Shown: positions 1-39,142 of the stretch, in pieces | Numbering within the stretch: position 1 is the stretch's first letter | Layout: each line of letters starts with the position of its first letter | Virus record (IMG/VR): IMGVR_UViG_3300045201_000011 | Span: 1-39,323 of that record | DNA: 39,323 nucleotides | Direction: 5' to 3' (one strand) | DNA from: a virus | Notes under the pieces: generated by a model | What the model saw: only the letters and a program-made list of their open reading frames with translations | The model's database searches: none | Told to the model about the DNA's origin: nothing | Made by a program: the position numbers and the translations under genes

Positions 1-127
1 AAGTGGGTAACTATGCATTAGTGGATAGATTAAAGCTGTAAGAAAAGGCCGGAGATTTACCATCCCGGCAACGTGGTAACTTCAATCTATTCACTAGTGG
101 AAATGTCGATGACGGTCTTTTAAGTCC
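1..127. repeat. Left copy of an exact 127-bp duplication of the window ends (identical to 39197-39323)
   Basis: Direct comparison: aagtgggtaactatgcattagtgg...gacggtcttttaagtcc occurs at 1-127 and at 39197-39323 with no mismatch. Confidence 0.95.
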
Positions 128-258: not shown

Positions 259-1383
259 TTAAGCGGCGAACTTTTTAATCACGTCTAGCTCTTCCGGCGA
301 GAGGCTGGAAAGCATTTCTTTGAGGGCTTCCAAGCGGCTTGGCTGGGAAGGCTTAGGCTTATTTTCCATACGCTGAATTGCGCCGTCCAGATCATCACTG
401 AACAAGTGAATGTAGCGCTGGGTGACCGTCATAGTTGAGTGACCGGCAAGCTTCTGGATGACTGCCGCGTTCTCTCCCTTGGAAGCGAGACGTGAACAAA
501 ACTCGTGACGCATCACATGAGGAACGAATTGTTTGTCATGTTCCAGACCGAGAGTTTCGGACATGCGGCCCCAGTAGTGTGCAACCTGATTCTTGTTCAA
601 GTTTGGAAACACTTCACGACCGGCCAGCTCATCCCTACGGCGCACCAAGATTGCTTTAGCGCGTTCCGTGAGGGGCACTGTGCGGCTCTTCCCTGACTTG
701 CTGCGCTGACCGGCTGCACCAGCTCCCCAAACCGTCACACGACCATCTTGAGCATCGTCGTGATTAAGCGCTAGGACTTCCCCTTGGCGCATTCCGGTAT
801 CGACCGAGAGAATCACATAGTCCTGCATGTCCTGATGCGAAATTCGCTCAAAGAATGCCAAGACCAGTTTTTCTTCCTTATCGGTGAAGCGTCTAACGCG
901 ATGTTCGCTTTCCTTGTAACGCGCAAATTTAGGCTTGCGGTCAACAATTCCCAGCTCTTCGGCCTCCGTCATTGAACGCGAGAGCGCCGCAATCTTGCGG
1001 TTAACAGTGCCCGGAGCATTTCCATCAGCGAGCAAACGTGCCCTCGCCTTGTCAATGTCAGACTTAGTGAGCTTGGCGATAGGAAGGTTTGAGCCAATGA
1101 TCGAAATGATCGACTGGGCATTAATGAGCTGCTTGTCGCCTGACGGCATCGGTGCCCAGTGAGTATCGTAGACGTACTGCACAAGCTCAGCGAGAGTAAA
1201 CGGCAAATCGCCTTTCCTCTTCACAACGCGCTCACCCATATCGATAGGCTCGCCTTTAATAAGCTTGGTTTGTGTCTCCAGCTCCCACAGACTTGCTTCC
1301 TGCTCATTGGTGAAGCTTCGCCTGTATCTCTTCCCCTTAAAATTGACAGTCCCTTCCCAAGAAGAACCCCTTGGTTTTGCCAT
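259..1383 (-). CDS. int: Tyrosine recombinase / phage integrase
   Basis: 374-aa ORF. Catalytic signature is visible: TGMRQGE (Arg), HVMRHEF (H-x-x-R), GHSTMTVTQRYIH (His...Tyr). Lies next to a tRNA gene. Confidence 0.9.
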   Translation of the reverse strand: MAKPRGSSWEGTVNFKGKRYRRSFTNEQEASLWELETQTKLIKGEPIDMGERVVKRKGDLPFTLAELVQYVYDTHWAPMPSGDKQLINAQSIISIIGSNLPIAKLTKSDIDKARARLLADGNAPGTVNRKIAALSRSMTEAEELGIVDRKPKFARYKESEHRVRRFTDKEEKLVLAFFERISHQDMQDYVILSVDTGMRQGEVLALNHDDAQDGRVTVWGAGAAGQRSKSGKSRTVPLTERAKAILVRRRDELAGREVFPNLNKNQVAHYWGRMSETLGLEHDKQFVPHVMRHEFCSRLASKGENAAVIQKLAGHSTMTVTQRYIHLFSDDLDGAIQRMENKPKPSQPSRLEALKEMLSSLSPEELDVIKKFAA

Positions 1384-1516: not shown

Positions 1517-1993
1517 TCAAACTGGCGATGTTTTCCCGCGTGTAGTCTTAGGTGCTTCGGATGCTGCCGCTGCTGCTTCCTCATGCATTCGCTCAATCTC
1601 AAGGCGAGCATCTGTTTCTTTATCGATTGAATAATCAGGATTGATTGTCCGCATCAGCTTCGTGATGAACGCCTTCCCCTCAGCGGTGAGAAAAACGAGA
1701 CGGCGTCGAGGTTCCCTAGGGTCAATAACCGCTTCCATAAGGTTTAACCCCGGCTTGCCCAAGCGGTGATATTTACTCATCGCCTGAACATTTCGAGAGA
1801 TTGACGATTGCGACAAGCCCGTGAGCTTTGACAGTTCATTCATCGTCAATCCCGGCTTACTGACAACACAGAGCAGAATATCTGCTTGCTGTATTGGCAT
1901 ATCAGGAGAGAGCTTGCGTAGAAGTCGAATAGCGTTCGCCATGACGAAAGTTACATCGTCACTTTTCCCTACCAAAAGTTCGCGCTTATCCAT
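1517..1993 (-). CDS. MarR-type winged-helix transcriptional regulator (candidate prophage repressor)
   Basis: ORF track gives 1517..2050. Start trimmed to ATG 1993 (MDKRELLV...) with GGAG 9 nt upstream. wHTH core LTMNELSKLTGLSQSSISRNVQAM...RRRLVFLTAEGKAF. The stop codon abuts the tRNA 3' end. Confidence 0.65.
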   Translation of the reverse strand: MDKRELLVGKSDDVTFVMANAIRLLRKLSPDMPIQQADILLCVVSKPGLTMNELSKLTGLSQSSISRNVQAMSKYHRLGKPGLNLMEAVIDPREPRRRLVFLTAEGKAFITKLMRTINPDYSIDKETDARLEIERMHEEAAAAASEAPKTTRGKTSPV

Positions 1994-2035
1994 GTTTACT
2001 CCATCTATTCGCCTATGAGGAATTTCCCACAGGTG

Positions 2036-2064
2036 GATATATGGCCGCAAGAAGGTAATGTCTA
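2036..2064 (-). promoter_or_regulatory. Sigma70-like promoter candidate for the MarR-type gene (TAGACA-N17-TATATC), overlapping a GTGGATA-box
   Basis: Minus strand reads TAGACA (2064-2059), a 17-nt spacer, then TATATC (2041-2036) followed by CACCTGTGG. Confidence 0.3.
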
Positions 2065-2431: not shown

Positions 2432-2659
2432 CTAGTTCGCGCCCGTCCCGTAACCGTTGCGCGAGTGGATTGATTTGGGCACAAAATTCCCGGCCTGCCG
2501 CTCGCTTTCTGCAAACGGAAGTTGGGGAACCTCGTGCCCTTGTATGTGACCAGTCATCCTGTCCCGATAAAACACTAACGTTCGGGATTTCCGGTAACGT
2601 GTCCGAAGTTTCTCGAACCGCCCACTTTCTATTAACGGATTATTTGCTTTTGTTCCCAT
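2432..2659 (-). CDS. Hypothetical basic protein (weak call)
   Basis: 75-aa ORF with an ATG start. Competes with a plus-strand ORF at 2470..2739. No recognisable motif. Confidence 0.3.
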   Translation of the reverse strand: MGTKANNPLIESGRFEKLRTRYRKSRTLVFYRDRMTGHIQGHEVPQLPFAESERQAGNFVPKSIHSRNGYGTGAN

Positions 2660-2959: not shown

Positions 2960-2988
2960 TTGTCCGCTCAGTGATATGGGATTATGTT
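2960..2988 (+). promoter_or_regulatory. Sigma70-like promoter candidate for the plus-strand gene (TTGTCC-N17-TATGTT)
   Basis: TTGTCC at 2960-2965, a 17-nt spacer, TATGTT at 2983-2988, about 30 nt upstream of the AAGGA RBS and ATG 3021. Confidence 0.3.
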
Positions 2989-3020
2989 CCCACTGTCCGC
3001 TTACGCTAAGGAATTACGTC

Positions 3021-3299
3021 ATGAACCGAATCGAAGATGAGCTATGCTTCCGGGTAGACCAGTGGACGGATGATGGAAGCAGGATTGATTCCGTTCTATC
3101 GCTCTCAATGAATGCGCTGATTGCACAGGGGGCATTTTATGAGGCCGTTAAACTCCGTCCTCACAAGCGCTTGACCATGCGGCATAAGTCGCGAGTGATT
3201 AATGAGCATGTTCCTGAACGACTACGCTTAATAGACATTGAGAAACGCGCCGAGCTGGAGCGGATGATTGCGGAAGCAAAGAACGCCCGCAAGAAATAG
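3021..3299 (+). CDS. Hypothetical protein; the only plus-strand protein gene in the genome
   Basis: ORF track gives 2976..3299. Start trimmed to ATG 3021 (MNRIEDELCF...) with AAGGA 8 nt upstream. 92 aa. Confidence 0.55.
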   Translation: MNRIEDELCFRVDQWTDDGSRIDSVLSLSMNALIAQGAFYEAVKLRPHKRLTMRHKSRVINEHVPERLRLIDIEKRAELERMIAEAKNARKK

Positions 3300-3300
3300 C

Positions 3301-3358
3301 TGCTCATCAGGCCAAAGGCGCAACCCCATGGCGACCGGAGAAAGCCCCCGGTTTCGCA
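3301..3358 (-). ncRNA. Hammerhead ribozyme motif, type II, copy HH2
   Basis: Minus strand reads UGC GAA ACCGG-GGGCUUUCU-CCGGU C GCCAUGGG-GUUGCG-CCUUUGGC CUGAUGA GCA. Predicted cleavage is after C at 3333. Confidence 0.75.
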
Positions 3359-3380
3359 TTGTTCTGCATATGTGGATTAG

Positions 3381-4022
3381 TTAGTGCGAAAAAATTGCAA
3401 CGCCTGAGGGAACATCAATCACATTGTAATCGTGTTTAATGTCGCGGGCGTATGCTTCATAATCGAAATAATCGATTAGAAACTGGGGAATCTTGCCGTC
3501 TGATGAGTGGCAAGACATTTGTTCGTCTGCTGCATTATCTGCATACTCCCGGAAGCTCTCAGAGATGCAAATGAATTGGTTCTCCATAGCGTCCGAGGCG
3601 TCCTTGAGATTACCGAAGTCCTTGATGATCGCCTCTAAGTCTTCCGAGTCGTGGCTGTCATGCTCTTCTAGGAACTCGACATAATCAGCAATTGCTTGCA
3701 GGCCGGGATATTCCCCGAAGGTTGACGGCATGTCGTCATAATCATGAACTGCATATTCTTCCGCGCTCGCTACCCTACCAGAACCGATGCATTCGGGACA
3801 TTCGCAAAGTCTCGTGTCACCTGTTTCGCTGTTATGGTGAGTGACTTTACCCTCACCTTCACAACGGACACATTTCACGGTCACGTTAGGAAACTTGCTT
3901 TCTCTGAGCATGGCGTTGACTTCATCCTGCATTTCATCAACGTCACTAGATGCTTCAACCCAGCGGCCATGCAGAACGCCGTTGTTATAAGATGCGAGAC
4001 AGGCAACGTAAAACCGAGCCAT
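3381..4022 (-). CDS. ardA: ArdA-family anti-restriction protein with an inserted double CxxCxGxG zinc-finger segment
   Basis: 213 aa. N-terminus MARFYVACLASYNNGVLHGRWVEA and ...EEYAVHDYDD..., a very acidic body and C-terminal YFDYEAYARDIKHDY fit my memory of ArdA. The insert is CVRCEGEGKV...CPECIGSGRV. Confidence 0.7.
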   Translation of the reverse strand: MARFYVACLASYNNGVLHGRWVEASSDVDEMQDEVNAMLRESKFPNVTVKCVRCEGEGKVTHHNSETGDTRLCECPECIGSGRVASAEEYAVHDYDDMPSTFGEYPGLQAIADYVEFLEEHDSHDSEDLEAIIKDFGNLKDASDAMENQFICISESFREYADNAADEQMSCHSSDGKIPQFLIDYFDYEAYARDIKHDYNVIDVPSGVAIFSH

Positions 4023-4126
4023 GATTAACCCCTTTGCGCTTGAAAATATATGTGATGAGGATTAATTGTGGGGAAGCCTCCGGCCTTATGACCGGAAGCC
4101 CCCTTGCGCTAGAGGGTTAAGAAAAG

Positions 4127-4157: not shown

Positions 4158-4239
4158 CGTTTCCAGCGAAGGGTGATTGACCATGTGAACATGTCAAACT
4201 CCCCACAATATGCCCCTGTAACGTCGAGGCGTTCCGCGC

Positions 4240-4301
4240 TTGCTCATCAGGTTCTAGCCGCGACACTAGAACGACCAGAGGGAAGCCCCCCGGTTTCGCA
4301 A
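4240..4301 (-). ncRNA. Hammerhead ribozyme motif, type II, copy HH3
   Basis: Minus strand reads UUGC GAA ACCGGGGGG-CUU-CCCUCUGGU C GUUCUAG-UGUCGCGG-CUAGAAC CUGAUGA GCAA. Predicted cleavage is after C at 4273. Confidence 0.75.
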
Positions 4302-4322
4302 TGGTATGCATTGGTGGATTGA

Positions 4323-4502
4323 TTAAGCCGTTTGAAGCTTGCCGGTCAGTGCCAGCGAGTGAAAGAGATTATGAGCGCCGTTGATATTGGCCTCAGTGGG
4401 TGACCGTTCTGCCTTATCACATGCAGCATTGTAGGCATCGGCTTGTTGTTTGGTGAAAACATAACCAGTGAATGCCCTGTAACCTTCCGCGATGCGTTCC
4501 AT
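4323..4502 (-). CDS. Hypothetical 59-aa protein (below the ORF-track cutoff)
   Basis: Hand translation: MERIAEGYRAFTGYVFTKQQADAYNAACDKAERSPTEANINGAHNLFHSLALTGKLQTA. Its ATG overlaps the upstream stop (TAATG), which suggests translational coupling. Confidence 0.5.
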   Translation of the reverse strand: MERIAEGYRAFTGYVFTKQQADAYNAACDKAERSPTEANINGAHNLFHSLALTGKLQTA

Positions 4503-5154: not shown

Positions 5155-5945
5155 GCCCTAACCTGCATTGATATGCAGTAGTGGATAGAATGTAGTCCTA
5201 TTCAATTGTCAAAGAACTCAGAGGCTTAGCCCCTGCCCTTCCCGGCGTTTGCCGTTCGGTGATTTGGTTTATATCCACTAGTGCATAGATACGCAATAGC
5301 GAAAATGAAAAAATAGACACGCTATCCATCTTTTTTGGATAAGTGCCTGAATTTATTGAAAAGGAAATGCCACAAGCCCGCCACATGGGAACATGAAGAC
5401 GGCTAATGTTAGCGCCTTGAGGTGGCTTGAGGGCGACCAGTGGCGGCATGAGGTGGCGAAAAGGGCAGACGTGGAGACACTGAGACACGCACAGAAAGCC
5501 ACAAGCCTGCCCGCCTGCATTGCATCGGAAGCACTAGCGGAAGCCTTGAGCCTGCCCCCCGGTGATGCTCAGTCTCTTTGAAGTCCAGCAAATGCAGGGC
5601 TTACGGGAAACGTGTGGCGGATTTAGTGGCAAACGTGTGTGCCCGCGAGCCTTTACCGCGCACAGTGAGCGCCTGCTCGTGCCTTTCACCGCGCCCCCAC
5701 GGGGGGTACGCGCGCTGCCCCTCTATCGATTGCCGCCTCGGATTTTTTCGGGGAAATAGCCGCTACCCTTAGGGCATCACAAAGCATCCCTCAGGTTGAC
5801 TCAGGGAAGCTCGTGGGAAGCGGAGAAGCTCTAGGGTGAAGGAATGTAATAGGTGAACCTCAAGGCTCTCTGTGAGTCTCTGAGGCTGATTGTAGGTATT
5901 GACTTTCCCTACGAAGGCGTAAGCCTGAGAAGGGAAAGGGCGATC
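5155..5945. other. Long non-coding, short-repeat-dense region (candidate genome-end / concatemer-junction and early control region)
   Basis: No convincing ORF. Short direct repeats: GCCACAAGCC(C/T)GCC x2, GAGGTGGC x2, AACGTGTG x2, CCTTT(A/C)ACCGCGC x2, GGGAAGC x2. GC hairpin CCCCCACGGGGG. Confidence 0.5.
5184..5212 (-). promoter_or_regulatory. Candidate host-type early promoter (TTGACA-N17-TCTATC), overlapping a GTGGATA-box
   Basis: Minus strand has a perfect TTGACA (5212-5207), a 17-nt spacer and TCTATC (5189-5184). It faces the early small ORFs and ardA. Confidence 0.4.
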
Positions 5946-6281: not shown

Positions 6282-6386
6282 TTAATAGTACCTTATGATG
6301 ATGGTCTGCCATCCTTAGCCTCTCAGAAGTCGAGAGGAAAGCCATGGAAATGATCATATACATAAGTAATTGAACCGGGCCTCCTC

Positions 6387-6404
6387 CTATGGTGAGGGGT
6401 AATT
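6387..6404 (-). promoter_or_regulatory. Phage RNAP promoter P1 (AATTACCCCTCACCATAG)
   Basis: 18/18 to the in-window consensus. Lies between the large-terminase stop and the Rap1a-like gene. Confidence 0.85.
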
Positions 6405-6452: not shown

Positions 6453-8141
6453 CTAGTTAAGCCAGCCGCTTTCGTCCTTGCTATCGTGCCCACGATTACG
6501 TTGTACGAGGTCCATGAACTCCTGCAAGGCTTGGTCCCTCAAGTTCTCCACATGCTCGTCATGGGCCTTCTCTGTGTCTCTCGCCATGCTTTCAGCCCAG
6601 TAGCCTACAGCCATCGCCAACACGTCAAGACGGTCATCCTTAGCTAGAGAGCCACGGTCACGGGTGATGCGAGAGAGCTGATACATGAGCTGACGCTGAG
6701 GTTCAGCGGTCATCTTATGGTCAACCTCAATGACCTTCTGATCGAACACAAGCCGGTGCTGATTCATGATCGGCTCAAGGGTGTCGCATATGCGGCGTTC
6801 TTTCTGCTGACTGTGCTTCACCTCCTCTATACCTACAGCATAGATTCGGGACACGATTGGCTTGAGAAGCTGCGTGAACATGCCATCACCGAAGTTAGCT
6901 TCGACAATGATCTTGTTAACGCTGTGCGTCTTAGCCAGGACTGCCAGCCCCTTGAGGGTTGCTTCGCTGTAACCTTCCTTGAAGCCGCCTGATGCGACAA
7001 CGAAGAGGAAGCCATTAAGCTGCTTTACGATAGCGTAAGCGGTTTCGTCCTTGCCACGTCCTGAGGGGTCAATTGCCATGACACAACCGGAATACTCGGT
7101 CATCTCGTTCGATACCCACATAGGACGGAAGTAGGCATCGCCATTCAAGCCGACCATTGGAAGGTCGAGACGCTTATCAATATCCGAGGTCCAGACAAGC
7201 TTCACAGGCGCCATACGAGGGTCAAGCGAGGTAACCATAAGGTCACGGAACTTGAGCGGGTAGCGGTCCTGATCTGAGAGAGAGGTATCAAGCATGAACT
7301 GGAGAGCGAAGCCTGATCGACCATACGATGCTTCACGTTCCTGCAAGTCGAGGTCATGGAAGCGCTTCGGGTCAACTGGAGTACCTGCCCCCGCACCGTT
7401 CATAATCAACTGACTAACGAACGGAGCCAAACGTCCAAGGTACTTATCGGGATTTTCAGGGATACGGGCAGGCCAGACACGGATTTCATAGCCACGTTCA
7501 GGAAGTCGGTTATAAATCGACATTTCCGTCTGAGGCGTTCCGAGATAGATCACTCGGCCTCCGGGCTTTAGAACCGCGTCGAACTCCTTAATTCGCTCGG
7601 CCAACAAATCTCGCATCGTCGCGGTCATCGCATTGTTCAAGCTTTCAACGTCATCAGCAATGATCACGTCCGCACGAGAGCCGGTTAGCTGGCCGGTAAT
7701 GCCCACAGACTTAACCGAGGGCGACTGCGAAGCGCCTGCCGGTCCTACGTCAAAAGCAATATTACTATCACGCTGGCCTTTCCCCGGCTTGAGGTGAGCC
7801 AATATAGGCATCTCGGCAATCAGTCGCTTCGTGAATGTCGAGAACGCATCAGCGCGGTCTTTTGCAGCCGATACGACCATAATGTTGAGCTGAGGATTAT
7901 TTAGGAGCAGCCAACAAACGAAGGCACTTGTTACCCAGCTCTTACCTACGCCACGGAAGGCTTGAATGACGGAGCGCTTTGGCCCCTTCTGGAGATACTG
8001 AGCCATGTCATATTGCGTATCGGTTGGCTCGGGGAGATTAAGGTGCTGCCAGACTAGGAAGAGGAAGTTCCTGAAATCACGGCGCACGGGGTCGATTGGC
8101 GTCAAGCTCGTACTTGAAGCGCCATTAGATTGTACGTTCAT
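6453..8141 (-). CDS. Terminase large subunit (T7 gp19-like)
   Basis: ORF track gives 6453..8198. Start trimmed to ATG 8141 (MNVQSNG...). Walker-A-like FRGVGKSW, plus position and size typical of T7-type maturase B. Confidence 0.85.
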   Translation of the reverse strand: MNVQSNGASSTSLTPIDPVRRDFRNFLFLVWQHLNLPEPTDTQYDMAQYLQKGPKRSVIQAFRGVGKSWVTSAFVCWLLLNNPQLNIMVVSAAKDRADAFSTFTKRLIAEMPILAHLKPGKGQRDSNIAFDVGPAGASQSPSVKSVGITGQLTGSRADVIIADDVESLNNAMTATMRDLLAERIKEFDAVLKPGGRVIYLGTPQTEMSIYNRLPERGYEIRVWPARIPENPDKYLGRLAPFVSQLIMNGAGAGTPVDPKRFHDLDLQEREASYGRSGFALQFMLDTSLSDQDRYPLKFRDLMVTSLDPRMAPVKLVWTSDIDKRLDLPMVGLNGDAYFRPMWVSNEMTEYSGCVMAIDPSGRGKDETAYAIVKQLNGFLFVVASGGFKEGYSEATLKGLAVLAKTHSVNKIIVEANFGDGMFTQLLKPIVSRIYAVGIEEVKHSQQKERRICDTLEPIMNQHRLVFDQKVIEVDHKMTAEPQRQLMYQLSRITRDRGSLAKDDRLDVLAMAVGYWAESMARDTEKAHDEHVENLRDQALQEFMDLVQRNRGHDSKDESGWLN

Positions 8142-8169
8142 ATCGGTGCCTAGGAGACTCCGTGGATAG

Positions 8170-8205
8170 CAAAAAAGGCCAGACAGGTGATTACCCATCT
8201 GGCCT
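8170..8205 (-). terminator. Intrinsic-terminator-like hairpin between the small and large terminase genes
   Basis: Minus strand reads AGGCCAGA-loop-UCUGGCCU followed by UUUUUUGC. Confidence 0.5.
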
Positions 8206-20787: not shown

Positions 20788-20806
20788 TTATCCACAAGTG
20801 GATTAG
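20788..20806. promoter_or_regulatory. Palindromic GTGGAT-box pair containing a perfect DnaA-box sequence (TTATCCACA)
   Basis: TTATCCAC-AA-GTGGATTAG read directly. Lies between the capsid stop and the terminator. Confidence 0.4.
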
Positions 20807-20809
20807 TTT

Positions 20810-21787
20810 TTAGCCACCAGAAGCGGCATCGCTGATTTCGATTGCAGCAGGTGGGCACAGAACACCATGACCAACTGCGTACTTGCTGATCACGAAGTGA
20901 GCCTGACGGCGTGGGTCGTAGCCAGCATCAAGGCCGAGGTCGAGGAGCTTCACAGTACCTACGGCGCGCTTCTGCATTACGAGAGCAACCGTGTTCGAGA
21001 AGTCGCCAGCATAACGCTTAGCGGTTCCGGCTTCGGTGCCTTCGGAAATGTTGGTTGCAGGGAGGTTGTTCGTCTTGACGATTTCGATACCAGCAACACG
21101 ATAGACCTTGCCGTCCGAGTATGCACCCGAACCACCGAAGTCGCGGTTAATGGTCTTCTCAGCCTGTACCAGCTTATAATACTGAGCAGGCTTGACGAAG
21201 CAGTATCGGTCTTCCTCCGGTACGTCCTTCTCATCAAATCGAGCAGCAGCCGCAAAGAGTGCAGCCGCCAGATGATCACCGTTACCTCGGAAGTTTGCCG
21301 CATTTGGCATATCCGATTCAGAAGGCTTGATCACCGAACCGCCCGGTAGTTCCGGGATAGCATTGTTGGAACGTGCTGCGAGTACGCCAACCTGTAGGAT
21401 ATGACGGTCCATGACCTTTGCGAGCTTGCGGCCCTGCTCAGTCGTCACAATGGAGCGCATATCATAATGGTTCTTCGCTTCATCGATATTAGCGAAGTAA
21501 GCGTCCGAGACGAGGAGGTCATCAATATGAATGAGAACTTCATTCTGGTTGACCTTCTGGCCCAGCAGCTCACGGCCCGGAGTGTGGTAGTACGCATCGA
21601 TAAGACCTGTTGCAGGGAAGGCTGCGGACTTACCATGGTCGATGCTGCGGGTTACGTGACGATCACCCATGACGGTTGCCGTCTCGAAAGCGGTTAGAAC
21701 TTCGCCTGCATAGATCTTGGCGAAGGTTGCATCAACTTCACCCGAACCGTTGATCTGGCCTAGGCGAGTTACATTTGCATCAGACAT
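20810..21787 (-). CDS. Major capsid protein (T7 gp10-like)
   Basis: 325 aa. ...IYAGEVLTAFETATVMGDRHVTRSIDHGKSAAFPATG... fits the T7-group capsid N-region pattern. Position is conserved. Confidence 0.85.
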   Translation of the reverse strand: MSDANVTRLGQINGSGEVDATFAKIYAGEVLTAFETATVMGDRHVTRSIDHGKSAAFPATGLIDAYYHTPGRELLGQKVNQNEVLIHIDDLLVSDAYFANIDEAKNHYDMRSIVTTEQGRKLAKVMDRHILQVGVLAARSNNAIPELPGGSVIKPSESDMPNAANFRGNGDHLAAALFAAAARFDEKDVPEEDRYCFVKPAQYYKLVQAEKTINRDFGGSGAYSDGKVYRVAGIEIVKTNNLPATNISEGTEAGTAKRYAGDFSNTVALVMQKRAVGTVKLLDLGLDAGYDPRRQAHFVISKYAVGHGVLCPPAAIEISDAASGG

Positions 21788-25233: not shown

Positions 25234-25248
25234 GGAAAACTAAATTTC

Positions 25249-25266
25249 CTATGGTGAGGGGTAATT
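25249..25266 (-). promoter_or_regulatory. Phage RNAP promoter P2 (AATTACCCCTCACCATAG)
   Basis: 18/18 to consensus. Heads the structural (late) gene block. Confidence 0.85.
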
Positions 25267-27236: not shown

Positions 27237-27472
27237 CAACTCTCACCGCGTAAGAGATGAAGATGCTGGATACCGGCAGCAGTCACCCGCCACTCTCGAC
27301 CGTAGAGGCCGGTAGCAATGCGTGTAGTAATAAAGCCATCCGAAGCAGCCATAGCTACGGAGTCCGCATGTTCCCTTGCAAAGTCGCTTTTGGTCTTGAA
27401 TGGGGAATGCCAAGCGCGGCTGAGAACGTCAGTGAGTTTCTTTCCAGTTGTTGCCAATCTTGTATTCTCCAT
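27236..27472 (-). CDS. Hypothetical protein (78 aa), 5' end overlapping the DNA polymerase 3' end
   Basis: ORF track gives 27236..27745 in another frame of the polymerase gene. Trimmed to ATG 27472 (MENTRLATTG...). No clear RBS. Confidence 0.35.
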   Translation of the reverse strand: MENTRLATTGKKLTDVLSRAWHSPFKTKSDFAREHADSVAMAASDGFITTRIATGLYGREWRVTAAGIQHLHLLRGES

Positions 27473-29426
27473 CAATCGGGCAGCGGAAGTTGAAGTGTTC
27501 GGTGCAAGCCCGCATGGAATTGACGAGGACTTCGCCAACTTCATCTGAAATCGCCTCTCGGCAATCGACCTGCATTTCGTCGTGGACGTGCGCCACGAAA
27601 GCAAAATCACGTCCGAATACATATCCACGTCTGCATAGTTCTTGATAAGCAAAGACAGTCGCCTGCTTTGCGATGAGCGCTCCAGCGGATTGCAGGAGAG
27701 TATTGAGGGCAGCATGAGCCGACCGTATGTGGAGCCTTCGACCATCTAAGCCGATCAAATAACCACGTTCAGCCGCCTTAGCGACCGCTTCACGAAGCTT
27801 CTTGATAGCAGGGGTTTTGTCTAGGAAGGTCTTCTTGAGCTTCTTACCTACCCGTTTGAGGTCGTCCTCATCAGGGTTTGGTTTGTAGCCAAGCTCAGTA
27901 CCTTTTGCCGGGAAGTATTTTTTGAATACCGAACAACCTAGACCGTCTCGGACTTCACGCATTGCAATGTCGAGAACGATGCTTCCGGCTTTCGCATCAC
28001 CGGCTCCATAAAGGAAACCGTAGATGAATGTCTTCGCACCGTTTCGGAATAGCTTATGGATTGGGTATCGGTCTTCATCTCGCTCTGTGCCGTGAGAAAC
28101 AAAACCAAGAGCAACCACGTTCGCCCAGTGAATATCGCCCTCAAGCAGGACGCGGCCATATTCCCCATCATCATAGCGAGCCATGAAGTGAGCAAGACAG
28201 CGTAATTCCAAGCCTGAAAGATCAGCACCTACGAGCTTCCTTCCTTTTGCTACGCCAAACAGTGCGCGGCAATCTTCACCATAGGGGGAGCCAACGGAGG
28301 GCACTTGCGCCACGTTAGGCCGTGAGTGTGTGCATCTCCCGGTAACAGCACCGTTCGTATTGACTCCTCCATGGATGCGACCTCGTCTAACAAGACGTAG
28401 CCATGCTTGGTCCCCCTCAGCGAGTTGGCCGATACGCTTTTCGATGAGGAAGTGCTGAGCGAGAACCTTGGCTTCGGGCCACGGGAGTTTCGATAGAATT
28501 GTTTCGTCAACTTTGGGCTGTCCATTTGGCGTAAACTCTTCTGGCTTCCAGCCAAAATCGATGAGGCGTTTCGCAATCATCTGACGTGAGCTGGGATTGA
28601 ACTCGACCACCTTTTCCTTGTAGGTCGGGACGCCCTTCACGTACCCCTTGGCCTTATTGTTGACCTTGGGAATGAATGGGATGCGTTCTGTTACGGGTGG
28701 GAAGCTGGTCTTAAGCTTCTCAGCTATCTCCTGCCGCTTCGCGATGAGGACGGCATAGAGACGAGCTGCTGCTTCTTCATTGAAGCCGAAGCCATAGCGT
28801 TCCTGCTGAGCAATAATATCCGCGAACTGATGTTCGAGCTTGATTGCCTGAGGAGAATAGTTCTTGTCACAGATGCGTTCGAACAGTTTGCGAGTAACTA
28901 CAATGTCCTGTTCGCAATAGGTCTGCATCTCCGGGTTCCAGTTGGCCCAAGGGTCCAGCCCTTGTTCCTGCATCGACTTCGAATAGTCACCCTTCCACTC
29001 ACCGAGGCGTAAGCCCCAAGCTTCAAGACCGTGTGAGCCGATAAGCTTTCCGGGAAACTTTCCCTTACGTGACTGCTTAGTGTCGAAGTCGCCAATAGCC
29101 GGGAAGATCAAGCGAGAAAGCACAAGAGTATCAATGATTTCACCCTGAGGCTTAAACCATTTGAATAGCTTTTGGATTGCCGGAATATCGAACTTGATGA
29201 TGTTGTGACCGATGAGTTCTTCCGCTTCCATAAGTTTGCGGACGGCCTCTTCGATAGAAATAGTGATCACGATACCCGCCTCTTCTGCGGGATTCTTCCA
29301 GTTGTCGGCGTGATCATGGGCTGAGTAAATCAGTGCTGTATCCAAGTCCTCAAAGCAAAGGCTATGGATGCACGAGGTTTGTTCCAGCAGCCCATTAGTC
29401 TCAATGTCAAAACAAAGACGAGACAT
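27429..29426 (-). CDS. Family A DNA polymerase (T7 gp5-like)
   Basis: Start trimmed to ATG 29426 (MSRLCFDIETNG = ExoI motif; GAGAGG RBS). Pol motifs include ...DLSGLELR... and ...HDEMQV.... Confidence 0.9.
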   Translation of the reverse strand: MSRLCFDIETNGLLEQTSCIHSLCFEDLDTALIYSAHDHADNWKNPAEEAGIVITISIEEAVRKLMEAEELIGHNIIKFDIPAIQKLFKWFKPQGEIIDTLVLSRLIFPAIGDFDTKQSRKGKFPGKLIGSHGLEAWGLRLGEWKGDYSKSMQEQGLDPWANWNPEMQTYCEQDIVVTRKLFERICDKNYSPQAIKLEHQFADIIAQQERYGFGFNEEAAARLYAVLIAKRQEIAEKLKTSFPPVTERIPFIPKVNNKAKGYVKGVPTYKEKVVEFNPSSRQMIAKRLIDFGWKPEEFTPNGQPKVDETILSKLPWPEAKVLAQHFLIEKRIGQLAEGDQAWLRLVRRGRIHGGVNTNGAVTGRCTHSRPNVAQVPSVGSPYGEDCRALFGVAKGRKLVGADLSGLELRCLAHFMARYDDGEYGRVLLEGDIHWANVVALGFVSHGTERDEDRYPIHKLFRNGAKTFIYGFLYGAGDAKAGSIVLDIAMREVRDGLGCSVFKKYFPAKGTELGYKPNPDEDDLKRVGKKLKKTFLDKTPAIKKLREAVAKAAERGYLIGLDGRRLHIRSAHAALNTLLQSAGALIAKQATVFAYQELCRRGYVFGRDFAFVAHVHDEMQVDCREAISDEVGEVLVNSMRACTEHFNFRCPIDGEYKIGNNWKETH

Positions 29427-29496
29427 GGTGCTGTCCTCTCTCAGGAGTGACGCCTCACAGGAATGCACCTGTGAAGCTATATGCATTAGTGGATGA

Positions 29497-29949
29497 TTAC
29501 AGGCGGAAAGCGTTCATCAGTTCCGCATGAGTTGCAGGGCGAGCGCTGGAGCCATATTGAAAGGCAAGGAGTTGGTCCTTGAGCTTCTTTTTCTCAGCAC
29601 GTAGAACCACAATTTCAGAGCGCATAAAGAACGTCGCAGTCTGAACTTCTTCCAAAGAGAAGCGTTTGTCAGTTCGGACCTCAGCCTTTGCAGCCTTCAA
29701 CGACTTCCTGAGTTCCCTCGTCTTCGCACGGGTCTTGCGCCCCTGCTGTTTCAGAAACTCGACATTGTATTTTTCAAGATTGACCTCGGCTTCCAGATTG
29801 GAAACTAGCTCACGGAGCTTCCGAATAGTCGCAGCCTGAGAAGCAGTTCCTTCGACCAACATCTTGTTTTCGCGTTCGAGCTTTGCATGTTCAGATGCAA
29901 CCTCAGTAAGAGCGTTCATCGCTGGCAGAAGCTTTTCATATGCGTTCAT
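29497..29949 (-). CDS. Coiled-coil hypothetical protein, flanked on both sides by GTGGATA-box motifs
   Basis: 150 aa with heptad-rich Lys/Glu/Leu composition. Confidence 0.55.
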   Translation of the reverse strand: MNAYEKLLPAMNALTEVASEHAKLERENKMLVEGTASQAATIRKLRELVSNLEAEVNLEKYNVEFLKQQGRKTRAKTRELRKSLKAAKAEVRTDKRFSLEEVQTATFFMRSEIVVLRAEKKKLKDQLLAFQYGSSARPATHAELMNAFRL

Positions 29950-29979
29950 GAGTTTGTTTCCATATGTGGATAGATTAAA

Positions 29980-31626
29980 TCAAAACGGAATTTCATCGTC
30001 CCCGGACGTGGTTTCGTCCTTGAACGGTATATTTTCTTCATCTTCGGGAGGTGTGGTTTCGAAGAGCTTTCCACTGTCTCGGTCATAACCAAGATGGATG
30101 ACCTCGCCTGTAGCGCGGCCTGTGTATCGGTCCTTGAGAACGCGGAAGGTAGTGATTGAACGCCACCGTTCATCCTCATGCTGCTGGTCCCGTTCGAGGC
30201 CGAACATGAAGAATGACCAAAAGCCGATAGACCGGGAGCCTTTGAAGTGCCTGATCATAACGCGGCCACCCTCTTCGTGAGGTTTGCCTTCCGGGGTCGC
30301 AAGGTGTGAGATGAAGTGAATGATGATGTTCAGCTCTTGGGCCAACATCGCCATGTCCTTCATGACAACTTCCAAGCTTTCCTTTTCCTTCTCAGGGTCA
30401 GCAAGAGCGGTCAGGTGGTCAAGATAGAAGATGCGTACGCCTTCACTGTGCGCCATGAAGCGGATAGCTCCAGCGATAACGTCCCAGTCTGCGGAGCCGA
30501 AGCTGTCATAGAATGAGAGACGGTCATCCTGATCAAGCTTTTCAATGACTTCGGACAACTCGTCCTTGGTCCAGCTCCCATCAGGAATGTGGAAGGTTTT
30601 GCCAGCGAACTTACCAGCAACGCGCTTGGCTGTTTCGGCGGGTTTCTGTTCGAGGAAGAAAAGCCCTACCTTCTGGCTAAGCTCCAGCACATCGAACTGG
30701 ATTTGCTGGGTAAATAAATCGGTCTTTCCTATCCCCGTCCCGGCACCGAAGCCATAAACTTCACCCCAGCGGCGACCATAGGTAATCTCGGTCAGTCTTG
30801 GTATGAACCACGGTAATCCCATTTCAGGGTCGCGAAGGACTTCATCCATAATGTCCGAAAGTTTCACAATGCCGTCTGGTCTGTGAACCTTTGCGTTCCA
30901 AATGGCTTGAACAATCTGGTCAGCTTCTCCAGCCTTCAGGTGTTCATTGGCATCCTTGCGAGAAAGTGAGGCGACCTTAGCCTTGCCAGCCGGGAAAAGC
31001 GCCAAGCAATCAAGTGTCGCCGCCCTCCCCGGTTCATCGCCATCAAACATTAGGACGACTTCCTGAAAGGTGTTAAGCCATTCGAGATGCTTAGACAGGG
31101 ACTTCTTTGCGCCCTGCGCTCCGTTTGGGATGGAAACGACCGGCCACTTATTCCCTTGAGCCTGAGAGACTGACATTGCATCAATCTCCCCCTCGGTGAT
31201 TACCACGCGGCGACCACCTGACGGCCAAAGCTGTTGCCCGAAGAGCAAGGCTTCTTTCATTGAGCCGATAACCGAGAAGTTCTTATCGGCATCTCGTGTC
31301 TTTTGCGCTACGAGATTTCCATCTGTGTCAAAGTAAGGTGCCGCCTGTACGAGCTTTTCGTCCCGGTTGCGGCCCACGATATAACCGAATTTTCGGCACG
31401 TCTCTTCTGTGATGCCGCGAGCTTTTAGCTGCGAGGCTTCTCCCCGAATTGGGTCAAACATTTTTGTTGCCTTGGATTTTGGAGACGGGGTGTCAGAGCC
31501 TTCCCCCGGCTCGTAATGTTCACAGCCGAAACAAAAGGCGTGACCGTCCGAGTAGCGGGCAAGGTTATCCTTGGAACCGCATGAGGGGCATGGCTCCTTG
31601 CGAATGAAGGAGCTGTCGTCTGTCAT
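29980..31626 (-). CDS. Primase-helicase (T7 gp4-like)
   Basis: Zn ribbon CPSCGSKDNL...CFGCEHY, a TOPRIM region (EGEIDAMS) and a helicase Walker A GFGAGTGIGKT. Confidence 0.9.
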   Translation of the reverse strand: MTDDSSFIRKEPCPSCGSKDNLARYSDGHAFCFGCEHYEPGEGSDTPSPKSKATKMFDPIRGEASQLKARGITEETCRKFGYIVGRNRDEKLVQAAPYFDTDGNLVAQKTRDADKNFSVIGSMKEALLFGQQLWPSGGRRVVITEGEIDAMSVSQAQGNKWPVVSIPNGAQGAKKSLSKHLEWLNTFQEVVLMFDGDEPGRAATLDCLALFPAGKAKVASLSRKDANEHLKAGEADQIVQAIWNAKVHRPDGIVKLSDIMDEVLRDPEMGLPWFIPRLTEITYGRRWGEVYGFGAGTGIGKTDLFTQQIQFDVLELSQKVGLFFLEQKPAETAKRVAGKFAGKTFHIPDGSWTKDELSEVIEKLDQDDRLSFYDSFGSADWDVIAGAIRFMAHSEGVRIFYLDHLTALADPEKEKESLEVVMKDMAMLAQELNIIIHFISHLATPEGKPHEEGGRVMIRHFKGSRSIGFWSFFMFGLERDQQHEDERWRSITTFRVLKDRYTGRATGEVIHLGYDRDSGKLFETTPPEDEENIPFKDETTSGDDEIPF

Positions 31627-32486: not shown

Positions 32487-32494
32487 GTGAGCTG

Positions 32495-32512
32495 CTATGG
32501 TGAGGGGTAATT
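32495..32512 (-). promoter_or_regulatory. Phage RNAP promoter P3
   Basis: 18/18 to consensus. Overlaps the stop codon of ORF 32511..32834. Confidence 0.85.
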
Positions 32513-34638: not shown

Positions 34639-34665
34639 CTTCGGATGAGCTGAGTTTATAGGTTG

Positions 34666-34683
34666 CTATGGTGAGGGGTAATT
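34666..34683 (-). promoter_or_regulatory. Phage RNAP promoter P4
   Basis: 18/18 to consensus. Overlaps the stop codon of ORF 34682..35128. Confidence 0.85.
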
Positions 34684-36010: not shown

Positions 36011-36039
36011 GGTGATTTCCTTGCTCGAAATGAGAACTT

Positions 36040-36057
36040 CTATGGTGAGGGGTAATT
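36040..36057 (-). promoter_or_regulatory. Phage RNAP promoter P5
   Basis: 18/18 to consensus, just downstream of the RNAP gene (the phi-1.1 position in T7). Confidence 0.85.
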
Positions 36058-36089
36058 CACCAGCGCAATTAAATGCACTGGTGGATAGA

Positions 36090-38669
36090 TCAGGCAAAAA
36101 AGAACGGACTCTCTAGGACCAACTGCAAATCCAGTGAGCCTTTTCGTGGGAGACTTGGAAGCTTTGTACCTTCCGGGAGCATTGCTGAGATTTCATCAGC
36201 GAACTCCCGCAACACATCATGATCAGAATACATTCGGACGAACTCTTCCCGGAGGAATTGAGCGAGCGCCCAGCTATTCCCAGCATGTGTGCCGTAGCTG
36301 TCGTGGATAAGGGAGAAAGACCGGATGCCTTCGTCGTGGCAGCGGGCTACCGTGAGCTGCATGTGAGCGGCGTCCATTGAGTGAACCCAGTTAGGTGCGA
36401 TGCCGCTGCCCTGCTTACGCTTATCGATCTTTCGAGTTGCCGTATCGATGGAAAGCTGGAGGCGGACCTTCTGGAATGTCAGCTCTAACCGCTTCTGTTC
36501 GCTGGTCGTGTACTCCTGCATGACCTTGAGGCCATTAGGAGCTGTCCAAATTACAGGAAGCCCCTCGCCTGATGCAATCTTGGCAACTTTCTGTAGCCAG
36601 TCCATCGCCGCACGAGCTGCGACCACGACTTCACCTACGCAATCCCAAATGAGCTGACCGAGGAATGAAGCAGCAGGATAGCCAGAGCCTTCGAATGGAA
36701 AAGCCTCGCCTGCTTCACGCTTCCAAGGGGTGACGGTATCAGTGAAGACCTGTTCACGGAAGCCGTACTCCTTAGCGCCATAGGCTAGTGTCATGACTGG
36801 ACGCTTGGTCACCTTTCGGGTGATGTTATATGCCAGCCACTTGCGAGCCATGGAGCCATCGCTCTCGACGGTTTTCATCTGACCGTCCTTGCCCATTTTC
36901 TCGGACGTATCCTCCGGGCAAGCCTGCGAGATTTCCTTAAGCTTCCCGATGAGAACATCAGCAACCGTCTGGTAAATATCGTTTGGCTTGTCTCCCGGTA
37001 CGAGGTTGACTGCCCTGCCCCCGATTTCATCCTTCAACATGGCAGAGAAATTCTGTAGGCCGTTGCATGTGCCATCCATCTGGATAGGCAAATGGCTTTC
37101 ATAAGAGTAGCCATCCTCACGGTATCCAGCCCACTCGAAACAGAATGCGAGAGCCTGCCATGGCTTATCGGCGGTCATCCAGAAGCGGTTGTCGTAAGGG
37201 TCGTGAGCAGAAGCAAGAATCTCCTGTTCGTTTTCCTTCACCCAAGAGACACGCTCCTCCAGCGAAACCTTATCGACGCCCCACAAGCCAGCCCCATGGA
37301 TAGCAAGCCAGTTCGCTCCTTCCTCATCACCAATCGGAACGGAGTTGGCAAACTGCAAGAGGCCATGATTCGCATCGTCCCCCTGAGGATTGAGGAACAA
37401 AGGGACAGCATAGACACGACCACGGAAATCCATCTGATGAGGGAAGAAGAACTCTTCGGTATCCTTGAAGCGGTTAGCTACCCAAAGCATTCGGGAAAAC
37501 TGGAGGCGCTTCGAAACAGCACGGGCGTTCTCGTCGTAGATAACAGTGCATTCAGACTTCCATCGACCAAACTCTTCGAGCTGCTCAAGAGACATGTCCT
37601 CCTTTGTGATCTTTCCTTCGAGCCAAGTAGGTTTGACAGGAAGCGGCATGTCATCAGCTTGGGGAACTATTGCGAGGGTGGATTGATTATCCCAAAGCTG
37701 GGTCATCACGTCCAAGACGCGCTGGTTGATCGACCACGCGGTCTCCTGCATTGCATTCAACGCCTTGAAGACGATAGGCATCTCGACCGACTCAAGGTCC
37801 GAGAGGTAAGCCCTATTGCTGGTCTTAACCAGCCGAAGGCCACGCACTCGGTTTGTCCAGTAGCCGCCTGAGGTTGGAGTTGTCCAAGGACGCGGAGGGA
37901 TAATCGTAGGCATGTAGACTGGGGCAAGCGGTGAGAGCCTAGCGTTCTCCGTGGCAAGCCACTTCATCGTTTCAGCAGTGGCGGAAACGTAGATATTCGT
38001 ATTGTTCTTGCCCTCAGTCTGACGAACAATTTCAAACAGGCCAGTGCTTTCCACAACTAACTCGACCAACTTAAGTCCAACCTTGATACGAACATCAGCG
38101 GACCATTCGTTCCAGTCTTCACCCTTGTTCTTGGCGTGTTTGATCATTGCACGGTTGCGATGATTTGCGTGCTGGGTCTGTCTTGTGATCTTTTTCCGGG
38201 CATTGTTAAAAGCGTCTTTGTCAAATTCCTCGAAAGCACGGAAGCGAAGCTCATCTTCGATCATCCCCGCCACGCGGTTTGCAACTGCCGTAAGCTTCAT
38301 GCGTTGAGAGACGCAATCGAAGAGTGTGCGCAGTGTGATGTGCGCAACCATGTCGTAATCAACACCTTCGAGATACTTGATTGCAGTATGGGCACGGCCA
38401 GCAGTCCGCTTCCCGGTCTCCTCAAAGAACTTTTCCAGCCCTTCGATGACTTGAGCATGTGCATGAATGATCATCCGGCGAGAGGAAAGGTTATTTGCTT
38501 CCGTTCCTTTAGTCTGATTTTTCTCAAGTGCCTTCTCAAAGCGGGCTATACCAGAACTTCTCATCTCCTCTTCAAGTTTTAGCTGGTCTTCCCATAGAGG
38601 ATGATCAGTAGGGAGATAACCATGAGTGTTAAGGAATACTTGGTTAGTTAGTTCATAGGTATTATTCAT
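36090..38669 (-). CDS. Single-subunit DNA-dependent RNA polymerase (T7 gp1-like)
   Basis: Start trimmed to ATG 38669 (MNNTYELTNQ...). C-terminus LIHDSYGTH...LESPFFFA parallels T7 RNAP IHDSFGT...SDFAFA. 859 aa. Confidence 0.95.
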   Translation of the reverse strand: MNNTYELTNQVFLNTHGYLPTDHPLWEDQLKLEEEMRSSGIARFEKALEKNQTKGTEANNLSSRRMIIHAHAQVIEGLEKFFEETGKRTAGRAHTAIKYLEGVDYDMVAHITLRTLFDCVSQRMKLTAVANRVAGMIEDELRFRAFEEFDKDAFNNARKKITRQTQHANHRNRAMIKHAKNKGEDWNEWSADVRIKVGLKLVELVVESTGLFEIVRQTEGKNNTNIYVSATAETMKWLATENARLSPLAPVYMPTIIPPRPWTTPTSGGYWTNRVRGLRLVKTSNRAYLSDLESVEMPIVFKALNAMQETAWSINQRVLDVMTQLWDNQSTLAIVPQADDMPLPVKPTWLEGKITKEDMSLEQLEEFGRWKSECTVIYDENARAVSKRLQFSRMLWVANRFKDTEEFFFPHQMDFRGRVYAVPLFLNPQGDDANHGLLQFANSVPIGDEEGANWLAIHGAGLWGVDKVSLEERVSWVKENEQEILASAHDPYDNRFWMTADKPWQALAFCFEWAGYREDGYSYESHLPIQMDGTCNGLQNFSAMLKDEIGGRAVNLVPGDKPNDIYQTVADVLIGKLKEISQACPEDTSEKMGKDGQMKTVESDGSMARKWLAYNITRKVTKRPVMTLAYGAKEYGFREQVFTDTVTPWKREAGEAFPFEGSGYPAASFLGQLIWDCVGEVVVAARAAMDWLQKVAKIASGEGLPVIWTAPNGLKVMQEYTTSEQKRLELTFQKVRLQLSIDTATRKIDKRKQGSGIAPNWVHSMDAAHMQLTVARCHDEGIRSFSLIHDSYGTHAGNSWALAQFLREEFVRMYSDHDVLREFADEISAMLPEGTKLPSLPRKGSLDLQLVLESPFFFA

Positions 38670-38728
38670 GGGAGATAACCTTCTGAAAGGCATAGGAAGT
38701 CCTTTAGGGAGACCTAAGGGGGCCATTC

Positions 38729-38746
38729 CTATGGAGAGGGGTAATC
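38729..38746 (-). promoter_or_regulatory. Phage RNAP promoter-like site P6 (16/18), 60 nt upstream of the RNAP start codon
   Basis: Minus strand reads GATTACCCCTCTCCATAG, with two mismatches to consensus. Confidence 0.55.
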
Positions 38747-38768
38747 AGGCAGCGCGTTTTGAGAGCTG

Positions 38769-38786
38769 CTATGGTGAGGGGTAATT
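38769..38786 (-). promoter_or_regulatory. Phage RNAP promoter P7, upstream of the RNAP gene
   Basis: 18/18 to consensus. Starts 2 nt after the stop of ORF 38789..39142. Confidence 0.8.
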
Positions 38787-38788
38787 GG

Positions 38789-39142
38789 TCAGTTGACCGT
38801 CAAAGCGCGTGTAATCTCGGCCTGTTTGCCGATCACATCACAGGCCCATGCGACTGCTTGAAAGCGTTCATCATTGGTGAAGGCTACTGCGTAACCTGTT
38901 CCTGCTTCGAGGTCGCTCCGAGTGACACGAGCGGTAAACCAATCAGGCAACCTATCGTAACGGTCGAGGAGGTATTTGCAGTGATGATCGAAGGTGTCGT
39001 CACGCCAGACTGACACGTCCAATTCGTAATAGAGATACGAGGTCCAGAGGAACATTTCGCATTGGCTTTTGAGGACTTTCTCCTCTGACCATCTATCGCT
39101 GTGGCGGAAGTATCCCTTCCCGTCCTTAATCCATTCCGTCAT
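38789..39142 (-). CDS. Hypothetical early protein (117 aa)
   Basis: ORF track gives 38789..39259. Trimmed to ATG 39142 (MTEWIKDGKG..., GGAG 9 nt upstream). The extended N-terminus would read through the GTGGATA-box and the end repeat. Confidence 0.5.
   Translation of the reverse strand: MTEWIKDGKGYFRHSDRWSEEKVLKSQCEMFLWTSYLYYELDVSVWRDDTFDHHCKYLLDRYDRLPDWFTARVTRSDLEAGTGYAVAFTNDERFQAVAWACDVIGKQAEITRALTVN

Follow-up and report, generated by a model that had tools for sequence, protein, structure and literature searches.

How a T7-like phage stays silent as a prophage, when its own RNA polymerase is expected to amplify its expression from a phage promoter, is a puzzle. The question of T7-like prophage silencing was raised in the study of the Pseudomonas phage LUZ100, where control of lysogeny by a MarR-type protein stands as a published hypothesis, the MarR binding sites are left unidentified and are considered possibly even defective, and three host promoters (P1 to P3) and eight phage promoters were mapped experimentally (PMC10134795). 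In the version of Boeckman et al. (2022), as cited in that paper, MarR sites flank the polymerase promoter, and as far as the model is set out there, it has sites around that promoter only (PMC10134795). MarR proteins bind palindromes as dimers (PMC9692554); a paper on a cyanophage MarR protein gives no binding motif.

Repression from many sites at once has been described in the cluster A mycobacteriophages. The repressor of L5 and its relatives binds more than 20 asymmetric sites, called operators where they lie in promoters and stoperators where they lie in short gaps between genes; the orientation of the stoperators follows transcription and their function is lost on inversion, the site being a fully asymmetric 13 bp and the polarity coming from a repressor monomer with two DNA-binding domains (PMC9283540). 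At the level of gene arrangement, hammerhead, ardA, marR and integrase have been described together in an Agrobacterium prophage, where self-cleavage was shown (PMC3088659).

We analyzed a stretch of 39,323 nucleotides of viral DNA, hereafter the window, that carries a short box in many copies. A genome-wide network of co-oriented boxes in Autographiviridae is not described in the literature that was searched (Boeckman et al. 2022 excluded), and the motif itself is absent from the LUZ100 paper (PMC10134795). Judged from comparisons between genomes, there is a slightly better than even chance that the box is the DNA site of a dimeric regulator encoded by the phage, with the MarR-type protein from 1517..1993 as the most probable candidate. 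A defined candidate site of 18 bp, common to LUZ100, the Rhizobium phage RHEph01 and many prophages, makes the question of prophage silencing directly testable.

The phage and its lysogeny module

The window belongs to a temperate, T7-like, circularly assembled phage. Its ends share an exact 127 bp (1-127 = 39197-39323) and so point to a circular assembly, 39,196 bp long; an exact overlap of this length is what a circular path typically leaves in an assembly with k=127, and features inside it are consequently counted twice. All long ORFs lie on the minus strand, and the gene order is of the T7 type. The list includes the single-subunit RNA polymerase (36090..38726), primase/helicase (29980..31626), an SSB placed between these two, the DNA polymerase (27429..29486), the capsid (20810..21787) and the large terminase (6453..8198), with portal, tail tube, internal virion proteins and tail fibre following the same T7-type order, all on the minus strand. 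Upstream of the polymerase, the lysogeny module consists of the MarR-type regulator (1517..1993, minus) and a tyrosine integrase (259..1383, minus), between which a full-length tRNA-Leu(TAA) runs antisense on the plus strand (1430-1516); the tRNA is likely the attachment site. The early region contains ardA (3381..4022, minus) together with three type II hammerhead ribozymes.

The nearest characterized relative is the temperate-like LUZ100, whose polymerase is 50% identical and whose gene order (MarR, tRNA-Leu, integrase, promoter, polymerase) matches that of the window; the antisense tRNA-Leu between MarR and integrase is found in LUZ100, RHEph01 and Pasto alike. The same set of MarR, antisense tRNA-Leu, integrase, phage promoter and RNA polymerase characterizes the phages for which the MarR model of lysogeny was proposed, Pasto (Boeckman 2022, to the extent that it is reported in the LUZ100 paper) and LUZ100. 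Prophages in a Rhizobiales isolate and in a Devosia MAG have polymerases 68-75% identical to that of the window.

Two smaller ORFs deserve mention. One of 117 aa (39142..38789, minus), between the integrase and polymerase genes, probably starts at 39142 (GGAG, then ATG) and not at 39259; it shows a weak match to a DNA ligase N-terminal domain and is without a phage promoter of its own. The other, of 107 aa (2976-3299, plus) and at most a candidate gene, lies between two hammerheads and opposite to all other genes, and a PHROG search gave no match for it.

The box and its copies

Read on the gene (minus) strand, the box is an 18-bp near-palindrome, CTATCCAC-NN-GTGCATAG, and in a fuller reading TTAAT-CTATCCAC-NN-(A/G)TGCATAG. 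It is made of two 7-bp half-sites about 10 bp apart, the left half ATCCAC facing GTGCAT. In the best copies, 14 to 16 of the 16 positions of CTATCCAC-NN-GTGCATAG are self-complementary, and the departure from perfect symmetry falls at one mirrored position. This asymmetry is itself conserved, the left half being ATCCAC and the right half ATGCAC or ATTCAC. With each place counted once, the window holds about 13 box sites.

The frequency of the motif is far above that in shuffled controls. The 14-bp core ATCCACNNRTGSAT, allowing at most one mismatch, gave 15 matches against 0.61 expected, a number that no shuffle reached, and the consensus TATGCAYTRGTGGATWGATTAA, allowing at most three, gave 4 against 0.00 expected. 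A position weight matrix built from eight copies scores those copies at 24-36 bits, and the best score of the same matrix on 100 first-order Markov simulated sequences was 18 bits. The motif that an earlier, sequence-only reading of this DNA had listed is confirmed: its seven full copies are all present, as are one inverted copy (5269-5290) and two palindromic forms (91-110 and 20788-20806). The copies at 12-33 and 39208-39229 both exist, but they are one site duplicated by the 127-bp overlap. Among its partial copies, 2027-2042 is a near-palindrome and 2465-2476 a plausible variant (AATCCAC-TCGC-GCAAC), but 4046-4068, with GAGGAT in place of GTGGAT, is doubtful. It had missed a weak site at 37668-37690 and the box ATATCCACGTCTGCATAG (27621..27638, plus), an opposite-strand copy within the DNA polymerase gene that may be a chance match.

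Around the integrase, the box CTATCCACTAATGCATAG (11..28, = 39207-39224, minus) lies between the terminator-like hairpin of the integrase gene and the 117-aa ORF, with the RNA polymerase promoter about 420 bp further downstream, and the near-palindromic CTATTCACTAGTGGAAAT (87..104, plus) is inverted relative to it; the two flank the hairpin 3' of the integrase gene. Another near-palindrome, ATATCCACCTGTGGGAAA (2023..2040, minus), stands 30 nt upstream of the MarR ATG (1993) and, by this position, is a candidate autoregulatory operator; in the relatives L073 and L074, TATCCATGAGCGGATA occupies the corresponding place before the MarR start. The variant CAATCCACTCGCGCAACG (2455..2472, minus) has a GCAAC-type right half, which is also seen in LUZ100 and L014. 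In the early region, TAATCCACATATGCAGAA (3362..3379, minus) begins at the ardA stop codon and CAATCCACCAATGCATAC (4304..4321, minus) at the stop codon of a 58-aa ORF, a hammerhead coming next in both cases. At the head of this region, CTATCCACTACTGCATAT (5171..5188, minus) sits 18 nt downstream of a TTGACA (5212..5207) and forms an inverted pair around a terminator-like hairpin with ATATCCACTAGTGCATAG (5271..5288, plus), the only good opposite-strand copy.

The remaining sites are spread over the rest of the genome. The perfect palindrome TTATCCACAAGTGGATTA (20788..20805, to which no strand can be assigned) comes 7 nt beyond the capsid stop, ahead of a GC-rich hairpin; TCATCCACTAATGCATAT (29479..29496, minus) overlaps the stop of ORF 29497..29949, directly before the DNA polymerase gene; CTATCCACATATGGAAAC (29956..29973, minus) is found just past the primase/helicase stop codon; and CTATCCACCAGTGCATTT (36071..36088, minus) overlaps the stop codon of the RNA polymerase.

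Orientation and placement at gene ends

The boxes run with the genes. Counted with the asymmetric form of the box, 31 copies in four independent genomes are oriented with the genes and 3 against them (p = 8e-7), and this polarity of a near-palindromic site is the odd property of the network. Seven of the window sites begin within 10 nt of the upstream stop codon, and the flanking TAATC or TGATC often includes that codon. Boxes are located at or just after the stops of the RNA polymerase, the primase/helicase, ORF 29497..29949, ardA, the 58-aa ORF ending at 4324 and the capsid; the boxes of LUZ100 and RHEph01, checked against the annotation, likewise sit at stop codons. The copies had earlier been described as lying 30-85 nt upstream of gene starts. 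This is correct for the MarR site, at 30 nt, but the placement at stop codons is the more consistent pattern.

Such a layout recalls the cluster A mycobacteriophages (L5 gp71 and the TipsytheTRex repressor): in both cases, a temperate phage carries many copies of one short site over its genome, some in promoters and most at gene ends, with the orientation following transcription, and the window too has many sites in short intergenic gaps that are oriented with transcription. The differences are equally clear, however. Against more than 20 asymmetric 13-bp sites bound by a monomer, the window has about 13 near-palindromic sites of 18 bp and a candidate MarR dimer; a stoperator is an asymmetric site of a monomeric two-domain repressor, whereas the candidate here is a MarR-type protein of 158 aa. 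Moreover, the polymerase blocked in cluster A is that of the host, while the window phage has its own single-subunit polymerase. At most, the box network resembles stoperators in function; it does not belong to their family.

Conservation in related phages

LUZ100 carries the box in the form CTATCCAC-N4-GCATA(G/A), at 371, 572, 3938, 3995, 6684 (polymerase stop), 6960, 11564 (primase stop), 22145 (capsid stop) and 34506, with palindromic forms at 13190, 14659 and 35000; boxes at 3846, 3938 and 3995 cluster between integrase and polymerase promoter. RHEph01 has ATCCAC-NN-GTGAAT at 551, 713, 2057, 7744, 10296, 14713, 19029, 24677 and 38963, and its boxes, too, follow the polymerase, primase and capsid genes. 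The window boxes 36071-36088, 29956-29973 and 20788-20805 thereby occupy the same addresses as boxes in both phages: the primase-end position is shared with LUZ100 11564 and RHEph01 14706, the capsid-end position with LUZ100 22145 and RHEph01 24670, and the position at the polymerase stop is kept in those of the scanned IMG/VR relatives that have a polymerase about 50% identical or more. Judged by these shared positions, the box is an old conserved element with fixed genomic addresses.

In LUZ100, all three mapped host promoters have a box inside or just downstream. In P1 and P2, it is located between the -35 and -10 hexamers (TTGACA-nn-CTATCCACCAGCGCA-TAAGAT), filling the spacer and part of the -10, and the RHEph01 box at 551 repeats the layout of P1 (TTTACA-tt-box-TATATG). 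In P3, which serves the MarR-integrase operon, a box variant TTCCACATCGTCATAT is found 5-22 nt after the start.

Temperate T7-like phages that are more distantly related have no ATCCAC boxes, and each of these lineages has a palindromic multi-copy box of its own. That of Pasto (L071), AGTCAC-N6-GTGAC, occurs at 392, 551, 8767, 8867, 11855 and 12369, and its copies include two that precede the polymerase gene and one that follows it by 15 nt; the GenBank record of Pasto has no operator annotation. L032 and L030 share GGTGCAG-N3-CTGCACC, with at least 12 copies in L032, L045 has GTGCAG-N4-CTACAC, and L046 has GATCCCAC-NT-CTG, of which twelve plus-strand copies are counted by eye and nine by a strict pattern. 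In Pasto, L030 and L046, a copy of the phage's own box is found just past the polymerase stop codon. When the Limnohabitans phage and L042 were checked for a box, no clear one was seen. Some of the L032 copies lie within the integrase gene.

The box and the phage promoter

The phage-polymerase promoter of the window is AATTACCCCTCACCATAG, and the box is something else. The motif AATTACCCCTCACCATAG(G/C/A)A has six near-identical copies, all on the minus strand (38786..38766, 36057..36037, 34683..34663, 32512..32492, 25266..25246 and 6404..6384), against 0 expected, and a weaker minus-strand copy at about 38727-38746; we take it to be a close likeness of the T3 promoter. Upstream of the polymerase gene, the motif stands twice in tandem, which implies that polymerase expression is self-amplifying, as has also been proposed for LUZ100. 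That the box itself might be the phage-polymerase promoter was a first hypothesis, rejected because AATTACCCCTCACCATAG fills that role in six copies; in relatives, too, the polymerase stop is followed by both the box and a distinct promoter. In the window, the box at the polymerase stop is followed by AATTACCCCTCACCATAG, and in LUZ100-like contigs, it is followed 20-30 nt later by ATTACCACACAGGTATGG, which is an experimentally mapped LUZ100 promoter (PMC10134795). The promoter motif differs in all three phages (ATTACCACACAGG in LUZ100 and ATTACCCCTCCCTTAAG in RHEph01), but the box is kept, and it therefore does not track the polymerase.

A promoter role could still be sought in a second class of phage-polymerase promoters or in a contribution to host sigma70 promoters. 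Like T7 and T3 promoters, the boxes are short, co-oriented, intergenic and present in many copies; their CAC-N4-G aligns with positions -7..+1 of the T7 core, T7 phi1.1A follows the polymerase gene as one box copy does here, and in P1 and P2 of LUZ100 and at 551 in RHEph01, the box adds to the -10 in addition to filling the spacer. On the other hand, the box is palindromic, a start at it would truncate the hammerhead that begins 3-4 nt downstream, most boxes are without a -35 and the consensus scan gave no promoter at boxes. More importantly, LUZ100 has both motifs, and there all eight mapped phage promoters carry the non-box motif, whereas the stand-alone boxes at 6684, 6960, 11564, 22145 and 34506 are without an annotated start. 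We consider a promoter role of either kind very improbable, and with the T3-like motif in place and no LUZ100 starts at stand-alone boxes, the unusual promoter element offered as an alternative by the sequence-only reading loses its ground. Of the two sigma70-like promoters proposed there (5184-5212 and 2036-2064), the consensus scan returned neither, but the TTGACA at 5212..5207 does exist. Readings of the box and the downstream TTGCG as sigma54, extended -10 or IHF elements were compared by eye and rejected for misfitting spacings.

DnaA and other proteins

The box has a certain likeness to the DnaA box. Its heptamer TATCCAC corresponds to positions 2-8 of TTATCCACA, its right half matches TTATNCACA when taken from the opposite strand (TATGCAC or TATTCAC), and two perfect DnaA boxes are present in the window. 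The core of the motif had been placed one mismatch from a DnaA box, but that alignment is out of register; in register, CTATCCACT differs from TTATCCACA at two positions. Both perfect copies of TTATCCACA that had been pointed out exist, but their number is not significant: the strict TTATNCACA occurs 2 times where 0.75 would be expected, a count also attained by 15 of 100 shuffles. DnaA reads positions 1, 2 and 9 and ignores position 5. In the box, it is the positions corresponding to 1, 2 and 9 that vary and position 5 that is fixed, and the pattern of a DnaA box, a match to TTATNCACA with positions 1, 2, 4 and 6-9 conserved, is not seen. With counts at chance, these positions not conserved and a box that differs between lineages, the earlier suggestion of DnaA binding is not upheld, and as far as sequence comparison goes, DnaA is unlikely to be the protein that binds the box.

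The same comparison bears on the wider proposal that the box is bound by some protein other than the MarR-type one, be it host DnaA, another host factor or a different phage protein. A universal host protein would fit the conservation of the box among phages whose hosts belong to different bacterial classes. Sister lineages, however, place different boxes at the same genomic spots, and the lineage-specific boxes together with the differing MarR helices argue against a host-universal protein such as DnaA. Other DNA-binding candidates were sought among the ORFs scanned and none turned up. We think it quite unlikely that the binding protein is to be found here.

Hairpins and hammerheads

After the polymerase gene, the box is the 5' arm of a hairpin, CACCAGTGCA-TTTAAT-TGCGCTGGTG (36058..36083, minus), whose 3' arm abuts the promoter at 36057..36037. 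The hairpin has a folding energy of -18.5 kcal/mol and contains U-G pairs on the sense strand. It persists in ten lineages, where 5 of 9 base pairs have changed in a compensatory way; some structure is thus selected there on top of the box. Its place is, we presume, roughly that of the R1.1 RNase III site and the primary origin of T7. A hairpin is seen at the same place in L001, L010, L013, L017, L022, L026, L028 and L057.

The type II hammerheads (3294-3359, 4234-4301 and 2869-2935, all minus) flank ardA and neighboring small genes. The box had been said to form the 5' flank of two of them, and it does precede two of the three; boxes also precede hammerheads in L003, L072 and L074. The hammerheads of these relatives lie at 7388-7454 and 8318-8393 (L003), 3700-3767 and 4303-4378 (L072), and 3537-3602 and 4508-4574 (L074), and most of the hammerheads, those of the window included, have a box before them. 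The spacing is identical in at least six cases (CCAC, 14 nt, GCGAAAC), and the box and the ribozyme may have been copied as one cassette. The early regions of L072 (3150-3195) and L074 (3075-3115) hold further hammerhead-like sequences, CTGATGAGGCC...GGCCGAAAC, that fall below the Rfam gathering threshold.

Hairpin and hammerheads together raise the possibility that the box acts in RNA, as a hairpin arm that marks processing or stability sites along with hammerheads and terminators, in a role like that of the T7 RNase III sites. The strict co-orientation with transcription, the covarying hairpin at the polymerase end (5 of 9 pairs compensatory) and the spacing to the hammerhead, fixed in at least six cases, all point in this direction, and the inverted pairs 104..82/33..11 and 5288..5266/5193..5171 could form stems of 16-20 bp. 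Single boxes, however, are without a stable fold (0 to -0.6 kcal/mol, the same as shuffles), and both half-sites are conserved in sequence rather than covarying. In LUZ100, furthermore, the P1 box is upstream of its own mapped start and thus outside that transcript, transcript 3' ends do not map to stand-alone boxes, and the integrase terminator is flanked by two direct boxes, so that the long-range stem is not conserved. We regard an RNA-level role as unlikely. Two of its specific forms were rejected. One is a self-folding hairpin for single boxes (energies about 0, equaled by shuffles); the other is a set of RNase III-like stems formed over a distance by inverted boxes, which are possible in the window, but LUZ100 has direct repeats there. 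The class II T7 terminator signal ATCTGTT was also considered; the resemblance is only partial and is not conserved in LUZ100.

The MarR-type regulator as candidate binding protein

The explanation that we favor, a phage-encoded dimeric regulator, has a candidate in the MarR-type winged-helix protein at 1517..1993 (158 aa, recognition helix SQSSISRNVQAMS). Pfam MarR_2 and HTH_24 match 1517..2050, and the best solved homologue is the MarR-family regulator PcaV, at an E-value (1e-3) that is weak. With its two half-sites, the 18-bp near-palindrome fits a winged-helix dimer such as this protein would form. Like a MarR operator, the box is a pseudopalindrome whose length falls in the range of about 16-20 bp and whose half-sites are separated by one helical turn; the genome has a MarR gene, and a site lies in the promoter region of that gene. 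In addition, boxes cluster between the integrase and the polymerase promoter (87-104 and 11-28), which matches the hypothesis of Boeckman (2022) of MarR sites there, in the form in which the LUZ100 paper cites it. The window departs from that published model in that its boxes extend to early promoters, to that of MarR and, over the whole genome, to gene ends.

The box and the regulator seem to change together between lineages. Lineages with ATCCAC boxes have a MarR helix of the form [S/A]Q[S/A][S/T]xSRN, while those with other boxes have SK.., TK.. or SS..; the Q-type helix is found in eleven ATCCAC lineages and other helices in four other-box lineages, a sample that is small and phylogenetically nested. 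The pairing has its exceptions: L042 has a Q-type helix but only one degenerate box, and the helix of Pasto is fairly similar to the Q-type, yet its box differs. A single-protein scan for relatives of the MarR-type protein found only 3 close ones. The sites and their statistics, their placement and conservation and this apparent co-variation with the regulator can be read off the genomes; we infer from them which protein binds the box and that its binding would repress initiation or elongation.

The operator of a phage repressor, which had been proposed as the most economical reading, remains the best-supported explanation by comparative reasoning from the geometry of the site, the LUZ100 promoters, the site next to MarR and the lineage-specific boxes. 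That reading had missed the co-orientation, the placement at stop codons and the true promoter; with these, the picture shifts from that of a classical operator to that of a genome-wide, stoperator-like set. Several observations sit uneasily with a MarR operator. A symmetric dimer gives no obvious reason for the asymmetry or the co-orientation of the sites; ATCCAC is kept across phages of alpha- and gammaproteobacteria, while phage repressor-operator pairs usually diverge fast; and the covarying hairpin after the polymerase gene and the fixed hammerhead spacing hint at a role in RNA.

If the MarR-type protein is the repressor, it would in the prophage occupy the boxes overlapping the promoters that the host polymerase uses for the early region and for the repressor gene itself, and block initiation there. 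It would also occupy the gene-end boxes across the genome, including the one beside the phage promoter after the RNA polymerase gene, and there might stop leaky transcription from spreading, in the manner of the stoperators of cluster A mycobacteriophages. More speculatively, and by analogy, the temperate T7-like phages that infect alpha- and gammaproteobacteria may keep the entire prophage silent through distributed, co-oriented MarR sites acting as polar roadblocks, an independent invention of the stoperator; we offer this tentatively and would not be surprised to see it fail. The sites would then block both initiation at host promoters and, at gene ends, the phage's processive single-subunit polymerase, and the conserved single-position asymmetry of the box could supply the polarity despite a dimeric repressor. 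Were the boxes to block elongation, they would provide compact orthogonal repressor-operator parts for T7-style expression in non-model hosts.

The stretch before the early genes

Between the last phage promoter, which follows the terminase gene, and the early genes lies a stretch of about 1.1 kb (5290-6384), in which we found no convincing ORF and, when looking for tandem repeats, none of these either. The physical ends of the genome probably lie here. At the equivalent place, the Limnohabitans phage has an array of CCACCAGGCAC repeats (L070 14970-15154).
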